IMG/VR virus record: IMGVR_UViG_3300002855_000234
Span: 1-58,317 of that record
DNA length: 58,317 bases
Source of the DNA: a virus
Taxonomy: Duplodnaviria > Caudoviricetes
Reading direction: 5' to 3' (one strand)
Shown: positions 22,883 to 47,847 of the stretch, one piece after another
How the letters are laid out: the number at the start of each line of letters is the position of its first letter
Position numbering within the stretch: position 1 is the stretch's first letter
Notes under the pieces: model-generated
Databases searched by the model: none
Seen by the model: only the letters and a program-made list of their open reading frames with translations
Told to the model about the DNA's origin: nothing
Program-made: the position numbers and the translations under genes

Positions 22883-23209
22883 ATGTCCGAGAAAATCACA
22901 GAGCAATTGGTCTTCCGTCCTGCCAGTGAAAAGCTGACAAAGGATCTGGATGGTGAGAGGGTGATTCTGCTCAACCCATGCGATGGCTGGCATATTGCCC
23001 ATGTGTTAGCCTTGGAAGAAGATGGCGAGGTCTACCATGTCGGCGCATATCAATTTGCAGGTGGCGAATTCGAGCCGCACGAATTTTATGTTGCCTGGGC
23101 GCTGCTTCCTGATTCGATAAAGTTGTCTGACCGATTTGAAGACCAGCGCCTGACGCCTGAAATCCGAGAGGCGCGCTTTCGTGAATGGTTAGCCAAAACC
23201 AGTAAGTGA
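22883..23209 (+). CDS. Hypothetical protein between Q and lysis genes
   Basis: GGAG RBS; 108 aa. Confidence 0.7.
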
Positions 23210-23222
23210 TTTATTGCCATAT

Positions 23223-23298
23223 TTGCCTGTAGCTCAGAGGAAAGAGCAACCGCCTTCTAAGCGGTTGGTCGCTGGTTCGAATCCAGCCAGGCGAGCCA
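23223..23298 (+). tRNA. Phage tRNA-Arg (anticodon UCU)
   Basis: Acceptor TTGCCTG/CAGGCGA, D arm GCTC/GAGC, ACCGC-CTTCTAA-GCGGT, GCTGG-TTCGAAT-CCAGC, G-CCA. Confidence 0.92.
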
Positions 23299-23352
23299 AA
23301 CCCAGCCAGGGTATTTACGGCCAGAGAGCCGACATTGCCTTACCCTCATCTT

Positions 23353-23375
23353 CCCGGCCTGTCGCCGGGTTTTTT
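23353..23375 (+). terminator. Terminator after tRNA
   Basis: CCCGGC-CTGTC-GCCGGG-TTTTTT. Confidence 0.75.
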
Positions 23376-23486
23376 ATTCCAGGCCCCGGGAACCATCATC
23401 GACACGCCTACTTGTTAAATCGTCCCGAGGGCCTGACCCCTTTCAAACAAACACAGCGCCATCCGTCATTAACGGAGGTGAGGCCT

Positions 23487-23810
23487 ATGAAAATGCCATA
23501 CAAACAAGATTTCATCGCTGCGCTACTTGCCGCCAAGGAGCAGGGTATTGGTGCAATGCTGGCTTTTATCATGGCGTACCTGCGTGGTCGCTATAACGGA
23601 GGTGCGGTAACAAAAACGCTAATTGATGCGCTGATGTGCGCGATGATTGCCTGGTTCGTTCGTGACCTTCTGGACTTTATCGGCCTGAGCAGCAACCTCG
23701 CCTACATAGCCAGCGTCTTTATTGGGTACATCGGCACCGATTCGATCGGTAATCTGATTAAGAAATTCGCAGCCAAAAAGGCAGGAGTTGACGATGCAAA
23801 CCAGTCCTGA
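23487..23810 (+). CDS. S: Lambda S-type holin with dual start (107/105 aa)
   Basis: Met-Lys-Met start; three TM segments; KKAGVDD tail. Confidence 0.95.
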
Positions 23811-24243
23811 AGGCATTGCGCTGATAAAAAAATTCGAAGGCTGCCGGCTGACTGCCTATCCAGATCCGGGAACAGGCGGCGCTCCGTGGACGATTGGTTA
23901 TGGATGGACTCACCCGGTAGACGGCAAGCCAGTAAAGCCCGGAATGACCATCGATCAGGCAACAGCTGACAGGTTACTTAAAACGGGGCTGGTGAGCTAT
24001 GAAAAAGATGTGCTGAAGGTGGTTAGAGTGAAACTGACGCAAGGCCAGTTTGATGCACTGGTATCGTTCGCTTACAACGTTGGCTCGCGTGCGCTTTCAA
24101 CATCCACGCTGCTGAAGAAGCTAAATGCTGGCGACATCAAAGGCGCTGCAGACGAGTTCCTGCGCTGGAATAAAGCTGGTGGCAAAGTACTGAATGGGCT
24201 GACCCGTCGGCGTGAGGCGGAGCGCGCTCTGTTCCTGTCGTGA
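23794..24243 (+). CDS. Endolysin, GH24 lysozyme
   Basis: [11 protein letters not shown]...WTIGYG, FDALVSF.YNVG, GLTRRR. Confidence 0.95.
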
Positions 24244-24713
24244 TTGGCGCACTGGTTAAGCGTTACTGGCTACAACTGAGTGTGGTGGCGTTAATCGGAG
24301 TGCTGGCGTTCTTTGTGAACCACTACCGCGACAACGCCATCACCTACAAAGACCAGCGCGATAAAGCCACCAAGAAACTCAGCCTGGCGAACGCCACCAT
24401 CAAAGACATGACTACCCGCCAGCGTGATGTCGCTGCACTGGATGCCAGATACACGAAGGAACTAGCCGATGCGAAAAAGACCATTAGCGATTTGCGTCGG
24501 GATGTCGATTCTGGCGCTAAACGGCTGCGCATCGCCGCAACCTGCCCTGGAGTGCCAAAAGCCACCTCCACCACCGGCGTGGATGATGCAGGAGCCCCCG
24601 AACTTACTCCAGACGCTCGACGGAATTATTTCGATCACCGGGACGGAATCGCAACCGCTGACAAAATGATTCGCGGCATGCAGGAATATATCAACACGCA
24701 GTGTCTAAAATGA
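24240..24713 (+). CDS. Rz: i-spanin Rz
   Basis: N-terminal TM, coiled coil, [15 protein letters not shown]. Confidence 0.93.
24469..24669 (+). CDS. Rz1: o-spanin Rz1 lipoprotein embedded in Rz
   Basis: Lipobox LNGC; PPPPPAWMM; +1 frame within Rz. Confidence 0.9.
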
Positions 24714-24724
24714 ATTCCCCCGAC

Positions 24725-25031
24725 AAGGAATCAGATTGTGTAACCCCGCAGGAGGTGATCACATCTTGACAGGCCGGAACAGACGGAAGTGGCATAGCAA
24801 CATCGTGAGATGGTGGCGACCGCTGCGACAAGAATGCCCATAGCGCCGATTCGTCGCAGTCTCCATGCCAGAACTATGACCGCAGCCTCCCTGAGGAGGA
24901 TTCTCCCTGCGCGAGTGGGCGTGGTTATTCAAAAACGGGTCACGCCGGGTTTTCCTCGCGATGGTAACGCGAGCTTTTACCTTCATAGCGGCCAGCCGGA
25001 GCCGTGGCGGGCGAATCTGGTTACTTACCTT
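24725..25031 (+). ncRNA. Candidate large structured RNA between Rz and terS
   Basis: Closing helix 24729-24737/25014-25022 enclosing at least eight nested helices, two with GNRA loops; no credible ORF. Confidence 0.6.
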
Positions 25032-25052
25032 TTCTTCAAACAGGATTAACTC

Positions 25053-25652
25053 ATGGCAAAACCGGACTGGGAGGCCATCGAAACGGCGTACCGGGCCGGA
25101 GTGATGTCCCTCCGAGAAATAGCATCACAACACGGTATCAGCGAAGGCGCTATCCGTAAGCGTGCCAAGCGTGACGACTGGTCTCGCGATCTTAATGCGA
25201 AAGTAAAAGAACGCGCTGACGATCTGGTACGCAAAGCAGAGGTACGCAAGCAGGTACGCAGTGAACAGGCTTTGTCTGAGCGCGTACTTATAGAGGCGAC
25301 GGCTGAGGTCATTGCCAGTGTTCGCATGGAGCATCGTGGCGATATTCGCAGGGCCAGGGAGATAACCAACGCGCTCTTTGATGAATTGGGCGCCGAGTGC
25401 GCAGACGTCGAATCACTGCGTAAATTGGGTGAGCTAATGCTCTCTCCTGATGATAATGGCCGCGATAAACTCAACGAAATTTACCAGTCGATAATCAGCC
25501 TCCCTGAGCGCGTTAAAGCGGTAAAAGCGCTGAGCGAATCCCTTAAAAACATAATAGGGCTTGAGCGTCAGGCGTATGACATTGGCGGGCCGGCTGGTGA
25601 CGATGACACGAAGAAACTTTCTGACCTGATGGATGAGCTAGCAAAGGGGTAA
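25053..25652 (+). CDS. terS: Terminase small subunit
   Basis: PDWEAIETAYRAG..SLREIA..HGISEGAIRKRAKR HTH; upstream of terL. Confidence 0.88.
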   Translation: MAKPDWEAIETAYRAGVMSLREIASQHGISEGAIRKRAKRDDWSRDLNAKVKERADDLVRKAEVRKQVRSEQALSERVLIEATAEVIASVRMEHRGDIRRAREITNALFDELGAECADVESLRKLGELMLSPDDNGRDKLNEIYQSIISLPERVKAVKALSESLKNIIGLERQAYDIGGPAGDDDTKKLSDLMDELAKG

Positions 25653-25654
25653 CG

Positions 25655-27139
25655 ATGAAGCCGGAACATCTCGCACTGCTGCGTGACAAGCTCTGGCGTC
25701 TGAACAATCTCTACTGGATCACCAACAAAGAAGGTAAGCCGGTTCGGTTCAAAATGACGCCGGAGCAATTGGAATACTTCGAGGGGATGCATACTCGTAA
25801 CATCATCCTCAAGGCGCGTCAGCTTGGATTTACCACTGAGGTCTGCATTATCCAGCTCGACGCGGCATTGTTTGAGGCTGCCCGTTGCGCACTTATCGCA
25901 CACACGCTCAATGACGCAAAACGCCTGTTCAGGGAGAAGATTAAGTATGCCTATGACCGACTGCCTGACGAAATTAAGGCGGCCAATCCTGCGAGCAATG
26001 ATGCGGCTGGCGAACTGGTATTTCAGAAGGGTGGCTCGCTTTATATCAGCACATCTTTCCGTGGCGGCACGCTCCGCTATCTCCACGTTTCGGAGTTCGG
26101 AAAGATATGCGCCAAGTTTCCCGATAAAGCCCGCGAGATTGTCACCGGTGCTTTTGAGGCTGTTTCGTCTGACTGTTTCACGACGATTGAGAGCACAGCG
26201 GAAGGTCGGGCGGGTTATTTCTTCGATTACTGCCAGTCAGCTGAAAAAGCGCAGATACAAGGAAAAACCATCTCTCAGTTAGACTGGAAATTTTTCTTTT
26301 TTTCGTGGTGGAAGAATCCCCTTTATGCAATTGATCCGGTCGAGCCACTTCCGCAACGGCTGGTTGATTATTTTGCTGAGCTTGAATCAAAGCACAGCAT
26401 AGCGCTGAACGATCGCCAGAAAGCATGGTATTACGCCAAAGAGAAAACTCTCGGCGACGACATGAAGCGGGAATATCCGTCGATACCAGATGAAGCATTC
26501 CAGCAGTCGGTCGAGGGCGCGTACTACGCTAAACAGTTCCGCTGGCTATACACCAACAAGCGGATCGGCCAAATCCCGGATAACTCGCACCTCCCGGTGC
26601 ACACGTTCTGGGATATCGGTGTTGGCGACTCCACTGCTATCTGGTTTGTTCGCGAGGTTGGCACGGAGTATCACGTTATCGACTACTACGAGAACTCTGG
26701 CGAGGGGCTGAGACACTACATGAAGGTGCTGAAAGACCGGGGATATATCTACGGCGAGCACTGGGGGCCGCACGATATTGACAATCGCGAGTTTGGCAGT
26801 GATGCCAAGTCACGCCGCGAACTGGCGCGCGAAGGTTATGAAATTGACGGGCAGAAATATTCACTCCGATTTCAGGTGGTGCCAAAGGAATCTATCGATA
26901 CTGGTATTGAGTCCGCGCGTGAAATTCTCAAGAAGTGCGCTTTTGATGAAGTGAAGTGCGCCGAGGGGCTAAATGCGCTGGAAAACTACCGCAAGGAGTG
27001 GGACGACAAGCGCGGCTGCTGGAAAGATAAACCGCTTCACGACTGGACATCCCACGGTGCAGACGCATTCCGTTACTTCGCTGTGACGAAAAATAATCGA
27101 CGTAAACCGACTGGTAAAGTCACTCAACTTCGGATCTAA
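25655..27139 (+). CDS. terL: Terminase large subunit
   Basis: LKARQLGFTT, HVSEFG, ESTAEG, WDIGVGDST, SHGADAFRY. Confidence 0.96.
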   Translation: MKPEHLALLRDKLWRLNNLYWITNKEGKPVRFKMTPEQLEYFEGMHTRNIILKARQLGFTTEVCIIQLDAALFEAARCALIAHTLNDAKRLFREKIKYAYDRLPDEIKAANPASNDAAGELVFQKGGSLYISTSFRGGTLRYLHVSEFGKICAKFPDKAREIVTGAFEAVSSDCFTTIESTAEGRAGYFFDYCQSAEKAQIQGKTISQLDWKFFFFSWWKNPLYAIDPVEPLPQRLVDYFAELESKHSIALNDRQKAWYYAKEKTLGDDMKREYPSIPDEAFQQSVEGAYYAKQFRWLYTNKRIGQIPDNSHLPVHTFWDIGVGDSTAIWFVREVGTEYHVIDYYENSGEGLRHYMKVLKDRGYIYGEHWGPHDIDNREFGSDAKSRRELAREGYEIDGQKYSLRFQVVPKESIDTGIESAREILKKCAFDEVKCAEGLNALENYRKEWDDKRGCWKDKPLHDWTSHGADAFRYFAVTKNNRRKPTGKVTQLRI

Positions 27140-27143
27140 TCCC

Positions 27144-28550
27144 ATGCCAGATATTTCGACACCCAACCTCGACTATAACGACATGATTGAGGCGTGGGAC
27201 ATTAACGATGCACTGATGGGCGGCACGCTGGAAATGCGTCGACAGGGCGAAACATACCTACCTCGCTGGCCGCGCGAGGACAAAGAGGACTATAAGAAAC
27301 GCCTGTCTGTTGCGACGCTGCTCCCGGCCTACGAAGAAAGCATTAAGCAAAATACCGGGCGCGTATTTGCTGAGCCAACCGTGTTAAGCGAAAAAACGCC
27401 GGAAAAAATCAAAGAGTATGCCGAAAACATCGATATGGAAGGCAGCCGCCTTGATGTCTGGGCGCAGCAATTCTTCAGCCTGGCGTTTCAGTATGGTCTC
27501 GCACATGCACTGGTGGATTACCCGCGCACCAACGCCGAAGAAATTCGCACAAAAGCTGACGAGCAGGCTGCTGGTGGTCGACCGTATGTAACGATGCTTA
27601 ATCCTAGGCAAGTGATCGGCTGGAAATCAAAGGTCGTCAGCGGAAAAGTTGTGCTCACTGAGTTGCGTGTAAAAGAAGTCATTGTCGTGGATGGTGACGA
27701 CTTCGGGCAAACCAAAGTTGAGCAGATCCGCCACATCATGCCGCGTAAAGTGGAAATCTGGCGCCGTAACAAAGGTGATGGTGGGGAATCCACCTGGACT
27801 CTTTATGAAGAGTGGGAAACCAGCCGCGACGACATTACCCTTGTAACGCTCTACACCAAAAAAACTGGGTTTATGCGAGGTTCTCCGCCACTGCTAAATC
27901 TGGCATTGCTGAACATCAAGCACTGGCAAAGCCAGAGTGAGCAGGACAACATTCTTCATGTTGTGCGTGTGCCGCTTCTGTCAGTTTTTGGTCTGGAAGA
28001 CGATCAAGAACTGGTCATTGGCTCATCCAGCGCTACTAAATTCAGCGACCGCGCAAAGCAGGGTATGGAATACACCGAGCACACCGGCGCTGCCATTGAA
28101 TCCGGCAAAACATCGCTGGATGATCTGGAAAATCAGATGCGCCAGGCGGGCGCGAAACTGCTGCGCGCAGAAAACACATCAACAAAATCTGACGACCAGA
28201 CGCATGAAGAGCATATGCAGGAAAACTCGCCGCTGTACACCATGGCGAGTTCGCTGGAGGATGCACTTGATAACATTCTGCAAATCATGGCTGAGTGGAT
28301 TGGTGAAAGTGATGGCGGCAATGTTGATGTGCGCACAGAGCTGGATGTTTCTGCTCAGACGTTCGATTCATCTGCTGCTATGGCCGTTCAGTCCCTGCGA
28401 CAGGGTGGTGACATTCGCCAGGTTGATGCCGTGCGAGTGCTTCAGGCGCTTAAATTCATCGACCCTGACGCGAAGCCGGAAGAGGTAATTGACGAACTGA
28501 GAAACCAGCAGGTAACGCTGGCAGGTGGCAACAATGGCGACAGCGAATGA
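27144..28550 (+). CDS. Portal protein (DUF4055-like)
   Basis: 468 aa following terL; YLPRWPRE..Y..RL, PPLLNLA. Confidence 0.88.
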   Translation: MPDISTPNLDYNDMIEAWDINDALMGGTLEMRRQGETYLPRWPREDKEDYKKRLSVATLLPAYEESIKQNTGRVFAEPTVLSEKTPEKIKEYAENIDMEGSRLDVWAQQFFSLAFQYGLAHALVDYPRTNAEEIRTKADEQAAGGRPYVTMLNPRQVIGWKSKVVSGKVVLTELRVKEVIVVDGDDFGQTKVEQIRHIMPRKVEIWRRNKGDGGESTWTLYEEWETSRDDITLVTLYTKKTGFMRGSPPLLNLALLNIKHWQSQSEQDNILHVVRVPLLSVFGLEDDQELVIGSSSATKFSDRAKQGMEYTEHTGAAIESGKTSLDDLENQMRQAGAKLLRAENTSTKSDDQTHEEHMQENSPLYTMASSLEDALDNILQIMAEWIGESDGGNVDVRTELDVSAQTFDSSAAMAVQSLRQGGDIRQVDAVRVLQALKFIDPDAKPEEVIDELRNQQVTLAGGNNGDSE

Positions 28551-46764: not shown

Positions 46765-47847
46765 ATGGCAGAAGCATTGACGGGAATGAGCTTGAATGAC
46801 GCGTATCAGTTAACCCTGTTTAAGTCAGATGTTAACGAGACTAATTATCGAGTGCGGTTTGGTAGTGGTGGTGCAACACCCTGGTCAGTAACGGGGAATA
46901 CTAATCTTTTTGCGACATTATCGCCGGATGTAGTCGCTCCGTTTCTCCCGGTGAACTACGGAGGTGTTAGGGCTGCGAACTATGGGGGATCTGGTTCTGC
47001 ATTTGCCGTGGGGACAACAACAAGCTCACCGTCCTCGTCTGGCGATCGATCTCAATATCTTTTAGTTTGCGGAAGCGTTGGGTTTCTTGCTCCGGCGGTG
47101 GCAGGGAAGGCGACCAAAGTAACCGAGGTTCGCAAGACAGTTACAGCAACTGCGACTACGTGCTTAAACCAATTTCAGATTGCGGCGCGTAATACTGGCT
47201 CTGATAGCACTGAAGATCGCATTATAGAGGCCAACACTTATTACGATAGTGCTAATCCAGCAAATAACTACAAAGAGTTCAAGTTCGGGGGATTCGGTGC
47301 GAGTTACGGTGACTCTGCACAAATGGTTTTTCATCATGATTTGTCAACTGGTACTGGATATTTCGGTTATGGTGTTGATAACAAGATTTCAGTGTTTACT
47401 GTTACCAATAGGGCATCAGTGATTTATGCAGCAACTGGAACAATTAACACTTCTGATGAGAGGGAAAAAGATAGAGAGGAAATTAATGATGCAGAGAGAG
47501 CGGCAGCACTAGAAATCAAGAAAGATATCTGGAAATACAGACGCACTGACTCCATAGAGGAAAAAGGCGACTCTGCAAGATATCACTTCGGTGTTGGTGC
47601 TCAATCTGTTGGCGATATCATGCGCAAGCACGGCCTGAACCCTGAGCTTTATGCGTTCTATTGCTATGATGAATGGGGTGATGAATTCGAAAGCGAAAAA
47701 GCCGTCAGATCCTCAGGATTCAATGAGGCTGGAGAAGAGCTATTCGAACAATACGAAACTGGTAAAATGATTCAGACCCAAAAGGCTGGCAGCCGGTACG
47801 GCATCCGGTATGATGAGCTGCTATGTTTTATTATGGCTGCATTGTGA
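46765..47847 (+). CDS. Fibre-like protein with C-terminal intramolecular chaperone (peptidase S74)
   Basis: INTSDEREK, RYHFGVGAQ, FYCYDEW, RYGIRYDELLCFI. Confidence 0.85.
   Translation: MAEALTGMSLNDAYQLTLFKSDVNETNYRVRFGSGGATPWSVTGNTNLFATLSPDVVAPFLPVNYGGVRAANYGGSGSAFAVGTTTSSPSSSGDRSQYLLVCGSVGFLAPAVAGKATKVTEVRKTVTATATTCLNQFQIAARNTGSDSTEDRIIEANTYYDSANPANNYKEFKFGGFGASYGDSAQMVFHHDLSTGTGYFGYGVDNKISVFTVTNRASVIYAATGTINTSDEREKDREEINDAERAAALEIKKDIWKYRRTDSIEEKGDSARYHFGVGAQSVGDIMRKHGLNPELYAFYCYDEWGDEFESEKAVRSSGFNEAGEELFEQYETGKMIQTQKAGSRYGIRYDELLCFIMAAL

Follow-up and report, generated by a model that had tools for sequence, protein, structure and literature searches.

Two structured RNAs lie between the lysis and packaging genes

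The stretch of DNA analyzed here, referred to below as the window, is a complete 58317-bp provirus record from IMG/VR (IMGVR_UViG_3300002855_000234). The interval under study is the 339-nucleotide (nt) gap between the spanin gene Rz and the packaging gene terS. This gap holds two independent, widely conserved RNA folds, which are maintained by compensatory changes and move separately between phages. Neither fold is protein coding, and neither matches a catalogued RNA family. The initial annotation had described the region as a single ~310-nt multidomain RNA. In its main point it was right, as the region is structured, conserved, and noncoding RNA with no match in Rfam 15 or among tRNAs and tmRNAs; its view of the region as one RNA was not borne out, as there are two tandem modules, called module A and module B. 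Of the roles it suggested (packaging RNA, terS regulator, ribozyme, or decoy), none gained specific support. The features of the locus are as follows.

24240-24713, + strand: Rz spanin gene (open reading frame [ORF] list; Pfam PF03245 Phage_lysis, 8.1e-40)
24469-24669, + strand: Rz1, embedded in Rz (ORF list)
24714-24829, + strand: module A, a ~115-nt structured RNA motif (covariance model R1; covariation)
about 24848-25009, + strand: module B, a ~170-nt two-domain RNA (match to covariance model R2 at 24837-25035)
25053-25652, + strand: terS (phrog_1206, 4.6e-90)

The Rz stop codon (24711-13) borders module A, and a lysozyme gene lies 5′ of Rz. Sensitive blastn searches matched two parts of the gap to unannotated DNA of other phages, each part being conserved on its own. 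Window positions 24751-24819 were 86% identical to Vibrio anguillarum phages and 83% identical to Serratia phage Eta, and positions 24737-24832 were 79% identical to an Escherichia coli prophage; all of these matches lie directly after lysis genes. Positions 24906-25023 were 73% identical to E. coli phage PhiR5_2, just 5′ of a packaging gene.

Module A is shared by phages of many hosts

A sequence pattern drawn from a four-way alignment matched the window once, matched none of 100 shuffled sequences, and was found in at least 120 IMG/VR contigs. The 124 instances of the pattern reduced to 78 distinct cores, of which 67 distinct full-length sequences were aligned. R1 was built from seven diverse copies of module A, including the window copy, with a hand-drawn structure. 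With filters off, it scored 98.4 bits (E = 2e-24) at 24723-24834 of the window, which is a training copy, and the next-best match in the window scored 7 bits. R1 recovered 67 of the 68 loci scanned, with PhiR5_2 as the single miss, and all 69 hits outside the training set had E values of 3e-10 or better. Of 120 genome-contig loci that match a relaxed pattern, 100 were scanned as a negative control; none gave a hit, which marks these 100 as chance matches.

A blastn search with the commonest form of module A added 48 phage records. R1 matched all 10 phages fetched from these, at E values of 3e-13 or better: Hafnia Meifeng, Cronobacter ES2 and ENT47670, Proteus Brookers, Yersinia vB_YenM_29.18, Klebsiella RCIP0055, Pectobacterium PEAT2, Acinetobacter LAPP1, Citrobacter K1M, and Salmonella CF-SP1. 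Named phages with module A are known for Vibrio, Serratia, Klebsiella, Yersinia, Hafnia, and Cronobacter, as well as for Proteus, Pectobacterium, Acinetobacter, Citrobacter, and Salmonella. The common form is rare in E. coli (6 of 5426 genomes). R1 matched neither of 2 Pseudomonas genomes and none of 151 sampled genomes of one class, a sparse sample that is no evidence of absence. In public RNA data, a 165-nt metatranscriptome contig covers 24703-24835, and one transcriptome contig carries a relative's module A. Contigs of public RNA runs matched 8 to 14% of sampled words, mostly in the Rz gene of relatives.

Compensatory changes support the fold of module A

Two alignments were used to characterize the fold. 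A3 is a plain MAFFT alignment of the 67 distinct full-length sequences and is blind to structure. RNAalifold applied to A3 returned three helices, the same as P3, P3a, and P4 listed below, in which 9 of 14 pairs showed compensatory changes. In A3, 96.4% of alignment cells pair, compared with 84.7% in shuffled alignments and 22 to 61% in slid controls, and 100 cells carry double changes, compared with 21 in shuffles (reached in 0 of 500). A10 comprises 76 R1 hits (75 distinct copies) aligned to the model. A10 shows 91% of cells paired and compensatory changes at 14 of 25 pairs, compared with 9.3 ± 1.1 in shuffles (reached in 0 of 500); double changes occur in 169 cells, compared with 44 in shuffles. 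Because A10 was fitted to the model, it leans towards the R1 structure; the A3 result is free of that bias. The elements of module A are listed here in order.

24714-24731, + strand: P0 hairpin, AUUCC-CCCGACAA-GGAAU, restricted to the "GACAAGG" subgroup and present in the minimum free energy (MFE) fold of the window
24733-24766, + strand: 5′ domain, with P1 (24733-36/24763-66), the GUG/CAC pairs (24738-40/24760-62), and P1a (24743-47/24751-56, loop GCA)
24751-60, + strand: extended Shine-Dalgarno (SD)-like box GGAGGUGAUC, followed 5 nt on by UUG (24766-68)
24774-24786, + strand: P2 hairpin, CCG-GAACAGA-CGG (24774-76/24784-86), from A10 covariation
24789-24826, + strand: 3′ domain, with P3 (24789-93/24822-26), P3a (24797-98/24816-17), and P4 (24801-04/24809-12, with a GUGA loop of the GNRA type)

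The 3′ part of the module (P2, P3, P3a, and P4) is very well supported. In A10, P3 is 99.7% paired with 3 of its 5 pairs compensatory, and all 7 pairs of P3a and P4 are compensatory. The U-G and G-U pairs of P3 are nearly invariant, being kept in 71 to 75 of 75 copies, which fixes + as the strand on which module A folds. P2 takes the form ACGG-GUAAG-CCGU in most relatives, and it closes with A-U (56 copies), C-G (11), or G-C (7). The structure of the 5′ domain is plausible, less certain, and not proven, because the domain is mostly invariant: 82.8% of its cells pair, and 3 of its 7 pairs are compensatory. A related 5′ hairpin is present in the MFE fold of the window; it has the same P1a, with the outer helices in a different register. 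P0 was present in 13 of 26 inspected sequences and is replaced by UAACC/GGUUA at loci L044 and L039 and by AUCAACC/GGUGAU at L048; these variants were noted outside any formal covariation count.

Module A carries a Shine-Dalgarno-like box that opens no conserved gene

The SD-like box was compared with the sequence of the 3′ tail of 16S rRNA. At least 7 nt of exact complementarity to this tail was found in 72 of 76 copies, compared with 6.8% of shuffled sequences, and a UUG lies 3 to 9 nt 3′ of the box in 69 of 76 copies. In the window, the UUG starts a short frame that ends at 24843. By eye, the frame opened by this UUG is not conserved as a peptide among relatives, where it runs for 6, 8, 9, 13, 21, or 25 codons in different phases. 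Module A thus has the 16S-complementary SD-like sequence, opening no conserved gene, that would mark a 5′ stabilizer or ribosome standby site, with the caveat that the core GTGATCAC was imposed on 66 of the 76 copies by the pattern that retrieved them.

Two further features of this core were observed. The nearly invariant GTGATCAC (24755-24762) forms an 8-bp palindrome with a Dam site (GATC) inside it; the copy in Vibrio phage Her extends this to a perfect palindrome of 14 bp.

Module A stands before many kinds of genes

In lambdoid and P22-like phages, module A lies on the late strand, 3′ of Rz, Rz1, Rha-type, or small accessory genes, and mosaic junctions coincide with its borders. Downstream, it precedes many kinds of genes and not terS alone. 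In 47 of 72 distinct downstream contexts, an SD sequence and an ORF of at least 40 amino acids follow, the ORF starting within 60 nt; a crude script placed a terminator-like site within 200 nt in 9 of the other contexts and neither feature in 16. By our own reading of the list, the ORFs 3′ of module A belong to at least 11 unrelated families. The module usually stops 16 to 30 nt short of the next start codon. In Yersinia phage vB_YenM_29.18, a terS gene (Terminase_2) starts 11 nt past the model match and 18 nt past the motif UGCG; by eye, its product resembles that of the window terS at the first residues only. A promoter scan found no promoter 5′ of module A in lambdoid phages, the window included.

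In two lineages, module A is instead antisense to the flanking structural genes, in a 400- to 675-nt gap with a σ70-like promoter and an intrinsic terminator. Citrobacter phage K1M and Salmonella phage CF-SP1 carry a cassette of σ70-like promoter, motif, small ORF, and terminator in which the two ORFs are unrelated, and the K1M promoter (TTGACA-17-TAGATT) ends ~7 nt 5′ of P1. In the Jedunavirus-like phages RCIP0055, PEAT2, and LAPP1, the promoter is followed by ~200 nt, the motif, a further 70 to 190 nt, and a terminator, and the unit holds no credible ORF. Since the gene setting varies so widely among carriers, the only constant is the RNA itself.

Several observations were made on the surroundings of the motif. 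In the Jedunavirus-like loci (L246 2797-2985, L247, and L249), the ~190 nt between promoter and module A are nearly identical in Klebsiella, Pectobacterium, and Acinetobacter phages and hold no credible ORF; the whole 400- to 500-nt unit may be one larger noncoding RNA. PEAT2 has a 46-nt tandem duplication adjoining the motif. At loci L111, L036, L044/L072, L251, and L253, a third conserved noncoding stretch lies 100 to 250 nt 3′ of module A, before KilA-N/antirepressor genes. It contains ...CCUGAGA(A/U)UAUCCGU...GGCGG.UU...CUGUGCGACAGGCU... and is absent from the window.

Module B is a second covarying fold found in lambda and Stx phages

A module B pattern was drawn from a five-way alignment and matched at least 121 IMG/VR loci, ~20 of which are GC-rich chance matches. 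Of these loci, 99 passed a sequence filter, leaving 65 distinct sequences and 31 after removal of near duplicates; 20 were aligned. RNAalifold placed 43 pairs in two domains, and 95.5% of alignment cells pair. Compensatory changes were found in 22 of the 43 pairs, compared with 7.1 ± 1.8 in shuffles (reached in 0 of 500), and slid controls paired at 33 to 61%. The structure was derived from the same alignment on which it was scored, which favors the fit; the long-range helices still covary clearly. The two domains are as follows.

24848-24941, + strand: domain I, with helices 24848-54/24935-41, 24863-70/24917-24, 24873-74/24915-16, and 24881-85/24907-11 and hairpin 24886-99
24943-25009, + strand: domain II, with helices 24943-46/25006-09 and 24947-49/24980-82 enclosing hairpin 24955-73 and helix 24988-94/24998-25005

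Helices 1 to 4 of domain I are 92 to 97% paired, 15 of 25 pairs are compensatory, and the MFE fold of the window recovers the domain. The outermost helix (24848-54/24935-41) reads GUAUCGU/ACGAUAC in most copies and GAUUCGU/ACGGGUC in the window. In domain II, hairpin 24955-73 resembles a terminator and is followed by CUUUUACC; a terminator scan scored it with 6 pairs, 5 of them GC, and the tail CTTTTACCTT. This hairpin covaries, taking the forms CCGCG/CGCGG, CACGUU/AACGUG, and CUGUG/CGCAG in relatives.

R2, which has the window in its training set, scored 154 bits there. Outside the training set, it scored 87.7 bits in phage lambda, 144.6 bits in Stx2 phage II, and 188 bits in Lambda_ev066. 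In lambda (NC_001416), module B lies at 46863-47046, between bor and lambdap78, where it is unannotated; it is 1.5 kb from cos and away from terS. R2 found nothing in HK022 or in loci with module A alone. By blastn, module B turned up in 398 phage records, lambda and Stx phages among them, and 1892 of the 5426 complete E. coli genomes (about a third) carry it, at up to 9 places per genome. The window copy is divergent, being ~73% identical to that of E. coli phage PhiR5_2. It differs from the lambda copy in its setting as well, with module A immediately 5′ and a different terS immediately 3′.

Database records place small hypothetical proteins on module B, for example, ORF C87 of Stx2 phage II (L379 1793-2038). 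No frame is open in all 20 aligned module B sequences, the alignment shows no 3-nt periodicity (0.139, 0.166, and 0.120), and it contains 27 single-nucleotide gaps. Covariation together with the lack of a conserved frame makes these protein calls doubtful and suggests that they are wrong.

Neither module matches a catalogued RNA family

An Rfam 15 cmscan of window positions 23000-26000, at E values up to 10, returned a tRNA at 23223-95 and otherwise only chance hits, all outside the gap. Scans of module A at 4 phage loci and of module B at 5 loci returned nothing from Rfam; the sole likeness was to the terminator-like ncS54, at 22.4 to 22.9 bits against a cut-off of 43. ARAGORN found no tRNA or tmRNA in the gap or in 6 related loci. 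Neither element was found in the open-access literature by keywords or by six sequence strings; subscription journals and bioRxiv supplements lay outside this search, and a prior description is possible.

A proposed portable leader and a possible late-operon element

Both modules are read from the late (+) strand. Our preferred reading of their function, tentative and given rather less than an even chance, is module A as a portable cis-acting leader and module B, more weakly, as a terminator/insulator or a processing/stability element. Module A would present the SD-like box and UUG in a partly closed hairpin beside a three-helix 3′ domain. We propose that, at the start of the message that follows, it docks a 30S subunit or some other conserved factor of the host, which would protect this message or boost its expression; STAB-SD 5′ stabilizers and ribosome standby sites offer a parallel. 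Module B, ahead of the morphogenesis genes, could use its covarying hairpin and U-run within a three-way junction as a conditional terminator or insulator that Q-modified polymerase reads through; alternatively, it could be a processing or stability element. The leader reading is favored because module A ends 16 to 30 nt before many unrelated start codons, because it carries the SD-like box with its UUG, and because in K1M a promoter-like site sits right at P1.

A number of results weigh against this reading. The retrieval pattern inflates the apparent invariance of the box, and the box varies (GGUGGUCA, GGUCAAA) among the 10 phage copies retrieved by other means, with a perfect match of 12 nt in Brookers at one extreme and a degenerate form in K1M at the other. 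The 5′ domain that holds it covaries little in A10. The Jedunavirus-like unit has no credible ORF to lead. In the window itself, the 220 nt of module B separate module A from terS, so that module A is no immediate leader there. The public RNA runs are available as contigs only, which give no transcript ends, strand, or level. For module B, the U-run 3′ of the hairpin is short and variable in relatives (GUUGU, GUUUGU, and AUUGU), which is weak for a terminator. Finally, folding z-scores show no excess of stability, being +0.81 (module A), −0.56 (module B), and, for the whole gap, +0.96 (+ strand) and +0.81 (− strand), no better than shuffled sequence. The case for RNA structure is therefore one of covariation, not of stability.

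A possible trans-acting RNA

The strongest alternative, unlikely as it stands, is that module A, and possibly module B too, acts in trans as a noncoding RNA that binds a conserved component of the host, such as the ribosome or an RNA-binding or defense protein, as a decoy, sponge, or mimic; its nearness to downstream genes would merely reflect the tight packing of phage genes. The Jedunavirus-like unit, which runs from its own promoter to its own terminator antisense to tail genes, fits such an RNA better than a leader. Further observations in its favor are the mosaic junctions exactly at the motif borders and, in several phages, a terminator within 50 to 110 nt 3′. A 24-nt stretch, UUGCUGACGGGUAAGCCGUAAGUG, is nearly identical in most enterobacterial copies from both temperate and virulent phages; the Vibrio, Serratia, and window copies have a different P2. 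More broadly, module A is nearly unchanged across unrelated phage lineages and several bacterial families, which points to a conserved host partner. This extreme conservation across hosts and the ORF-less unit keep the trans-acting RNA a live alternative. Against it, an ORF starts within 60 nt, with no terminator between, in the 47 of 72 downstream contexts described above.

A more specific form of this alternative is a little less likely again. In it, module A would be a stand-alone RNA acting on a conserved host machine, likeliest the 30S subunit via the 16S 3′ tail or else a defense or RNA-binding protein, and module B would add a second regulatory RNA of the late operon, unrelated to the first. 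As a trans-acting effector, module A would then serve both temperate and virulent phages, from Vibrio to Klebsiella and Acinetobacter, in translation takeover or counterdefense.

Other modes of action

We consider it doubtful that module A switches the translation or termination of downstream genes in response to a ligand or host protein, as an orphan riboswitch or protein-binding operator would. It does have a multihelix junction, with conserved unpaired AAGUG, AGCA, GGCRAC, and UGCGA and GNRA loops, and it occupies a 5′ untranslated position in which the SD-like sequence is half sequestered by AACCCC. The downstream genes, however, share no common function, and inspection revealed no conserved alternative pairing, with the downstream SD or otherwise. 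The SD-like box, moreover, is placed 5′ to the junction domain, not within an expression platform, and no Rfam riboswitch matched.

Action like that of HK022 put or Bacillus EAR, by which RNA polymerase would read through later terminators (24925-47 and 24955-73) into the morphogenesis operon, is improbable; it is unsupported as family membership and minor as a mode of action. The putL and putR elements are short cis-acting phage RNAs that work without a dedicated phage protein in operons 5′ of terminators, as described in PMC9378689. Module A is likewise a short phage-encoded RNA element within or heading long operons, and terminator-like hairpins follow it in the window, at L048 and L251/L253, and in Vibrio phage Her. 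The two are not homologous in sequence or structure: put has two stem-loops in ~70 nt and lies by early promoters, whereas module A has 6 to 7 helices in ~115 nt and occupies late or moron positions. R1 run on all of HK022 (40751 bp) with filters off gave a best score of 5.5 bits (E = 3.5). In K1M and CF-SP1, moreover, read-through would yield only RNA antisense to structural genes, and between most copies and the gene that follows there is no terminator.

Slightly more improbable still, the modules could be RNA processing sites (a self-cleaving ribozyme or a site for RNase III, E, or P) that cut the late transcript between lysis and head genes and leave protective ends. Their position at the boundary between gene blocks, their conserved cores, and the stacking of P3, P3a, and P4 to 12 bp by our own count would suit this role. 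No Rfam ribozyme matched, however, and stand-alone cassettes that start at the motif need no processing.

It is very improbable that the conservation reflects protein coding (ORF 24810-25049 on the + strand or ORF 24759-24986 on the − strand) or a DNA site such as pac or cos. These ORFs exist, some records annotate small proteins over module B, and module A contains the GATC palindrome. Pfam gave no match for either ORF, and no coding-type conservation of ORF 24810-25049 was found. Together with the frame, periodicity, and single-nucleotide gap results for module B, this led us to reject the protein-coding reading. Compensatory changes and strand-specific G-U pairs point to RNA, and carriers of module A have unrelated terminases.

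Just as improbable, and already largely refuted, is a single ~310-nt RNA closed by pairing of its ends. The complementary strings quoted in the initial annotation are all present at their positions, and the MFE fold of the whole gap does pair both ends. The end-to-end helix (24729-37/25014-22) is nevertheless not general, as its halves lie apart in nearly all relatives. Module A was found within 400 nt 5′ of module B at 2 loci (the window and one other) among at least 121 pattern matches (~20 by chance), Hafnia phage Meifeng is a further phage with both (R1 and R2), and most loci have module A without module B. The modules are mostly apart in relatives, so the 310-nt unit is a juxtaposition of the two.

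Within the modules, several of the proposed local helices agree with the alignments. The UGUG/CACA hairpin (24737-40/24760-63) retains GUG/CAC pairs in 50 to 67 of 75 copies, every pair of the CAUC-GUGA-GAUG hairpin (24801-12) is compensatory, and the inner 4 pairs of CUCGCG/CGCGAG (24955-73) are 97% paired. In relatives, CCGC/GCGG, CCAG/CUGG, or CCC/GGG stands in place of the CCUCC-CUGA-GGAGG hairpin (24886-99). The cross-domain helices fared poorly. UGGCAU/AUGCCA (24790-95/24865-70) and CUGCGAC/GUCGCAG clash with P3, and the module B helices between hairpins are weak, with GGCGUG/CACGCC 53% paired and CUAUGA/UCAUAG 72% paired. A proposed switch pairing (24876-83/24921-28) is 50.6% paired, indistinguishable from the 50.0% of shuffles. 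The stability expected of such a fold was missing as well, with the whole-gap z-score near zero, and the covariation sought was clear in both modules.

Relation to known elements

Structured RNAs with such strong covariation are usually functional, and Rfam lists very few structured RNAs from enterobacterial phages. In STAB-SD stabilizers, such as the Bacillus thuringiensis cryIIIA leader, and in ribosome standby sites, an SD-like sequence in a leader without a real gene is thought to hold the 30S subunit and protect or boost the message. Module A shares the SD-like box with them. A STAB-SD, however, is a bare SD-like sequence, whereas in module A the box is joined by P2 and by a conserved three-helix domain that covaries, and any effect of module A on stability is putative.

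Moron cassettes of lambdoid phages (Juhala et al. 2000, as cited in PMC4104026) use the same insertion slot between lysis and head genes, and some copies of module A (K1M and CF-SP1) likewise lie in promoter-gene-terminator cassettes. Morons are defined by their protein cargo; in module A, the RNA fold is constant and the cargo varies. The small RNAs AgvB, AsxR, and Pas of pathogenic E. coli lie 3′ of pR′, near Q and the holin gene, and are 51 to 60 nt long or belong to Rfam families, according to PMC4104026 and preprint 10.64898/2026.05.13.724894. They and both modules are noncoding RNAs of the late regions of lambdoid prophages. The small RNAs sit elsewhere in the prophage, however, and neither module matches them in Rfam scans.

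Lambda, Stx-converting phages, and roughly one in three complete E. coli genomes carry module B, yet it is unannotated. Either module could show how late transcripts are partitioned, stabilized, or translated between the lysis and assembly genes, a poorly understood step, and the small size of both opens them to direct genetic and biochemical testing in lambda and E. coli K-12. Both would improve phage annotation, since hypothetical proteins are now placed on module B. If module A were a stand-alone trans-acting RNA and module B a second, late-operon RNA, two new functional RNA classes would be present in the best-studied phages.

Neighboring genes and minor observations

The genes beyond terS and upstream of the lysis cassette include the following.

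25655-27139: terL, next after terS (phrog_2, terminase large subunit, 4.3e-43)
27144-28550: portal gene, after terL (phrog_145, 9.4e-156)
23223-23298, + strand: tRNA-Arg, anticodon tct (Rfam, 66 bits; ARAGORN)

The terL product has no Pfam match at E ≤ 0.01, and two PHROGs of "unknown function" divide it near residue ~185. The tRNA-Arg(tct) gene, the only tRNA gene found in the window, closely precedes the holin gene and lysis cassette. A listed ORF (23214-23810) spans this tRNA gene, and the 5′ end of the ORF is probably spurious.

A strong 10-bp hairpin, GAAGCUCUUC-ACU-GAGGGGCUUC, followed by GAUAAUGA, recurs beside module A, either upstream or downstream (L005, ~1430-1465; L035, ~50 nt 3′ of the motif). 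It has the look of a further small mobile element, of RNA or DNA.

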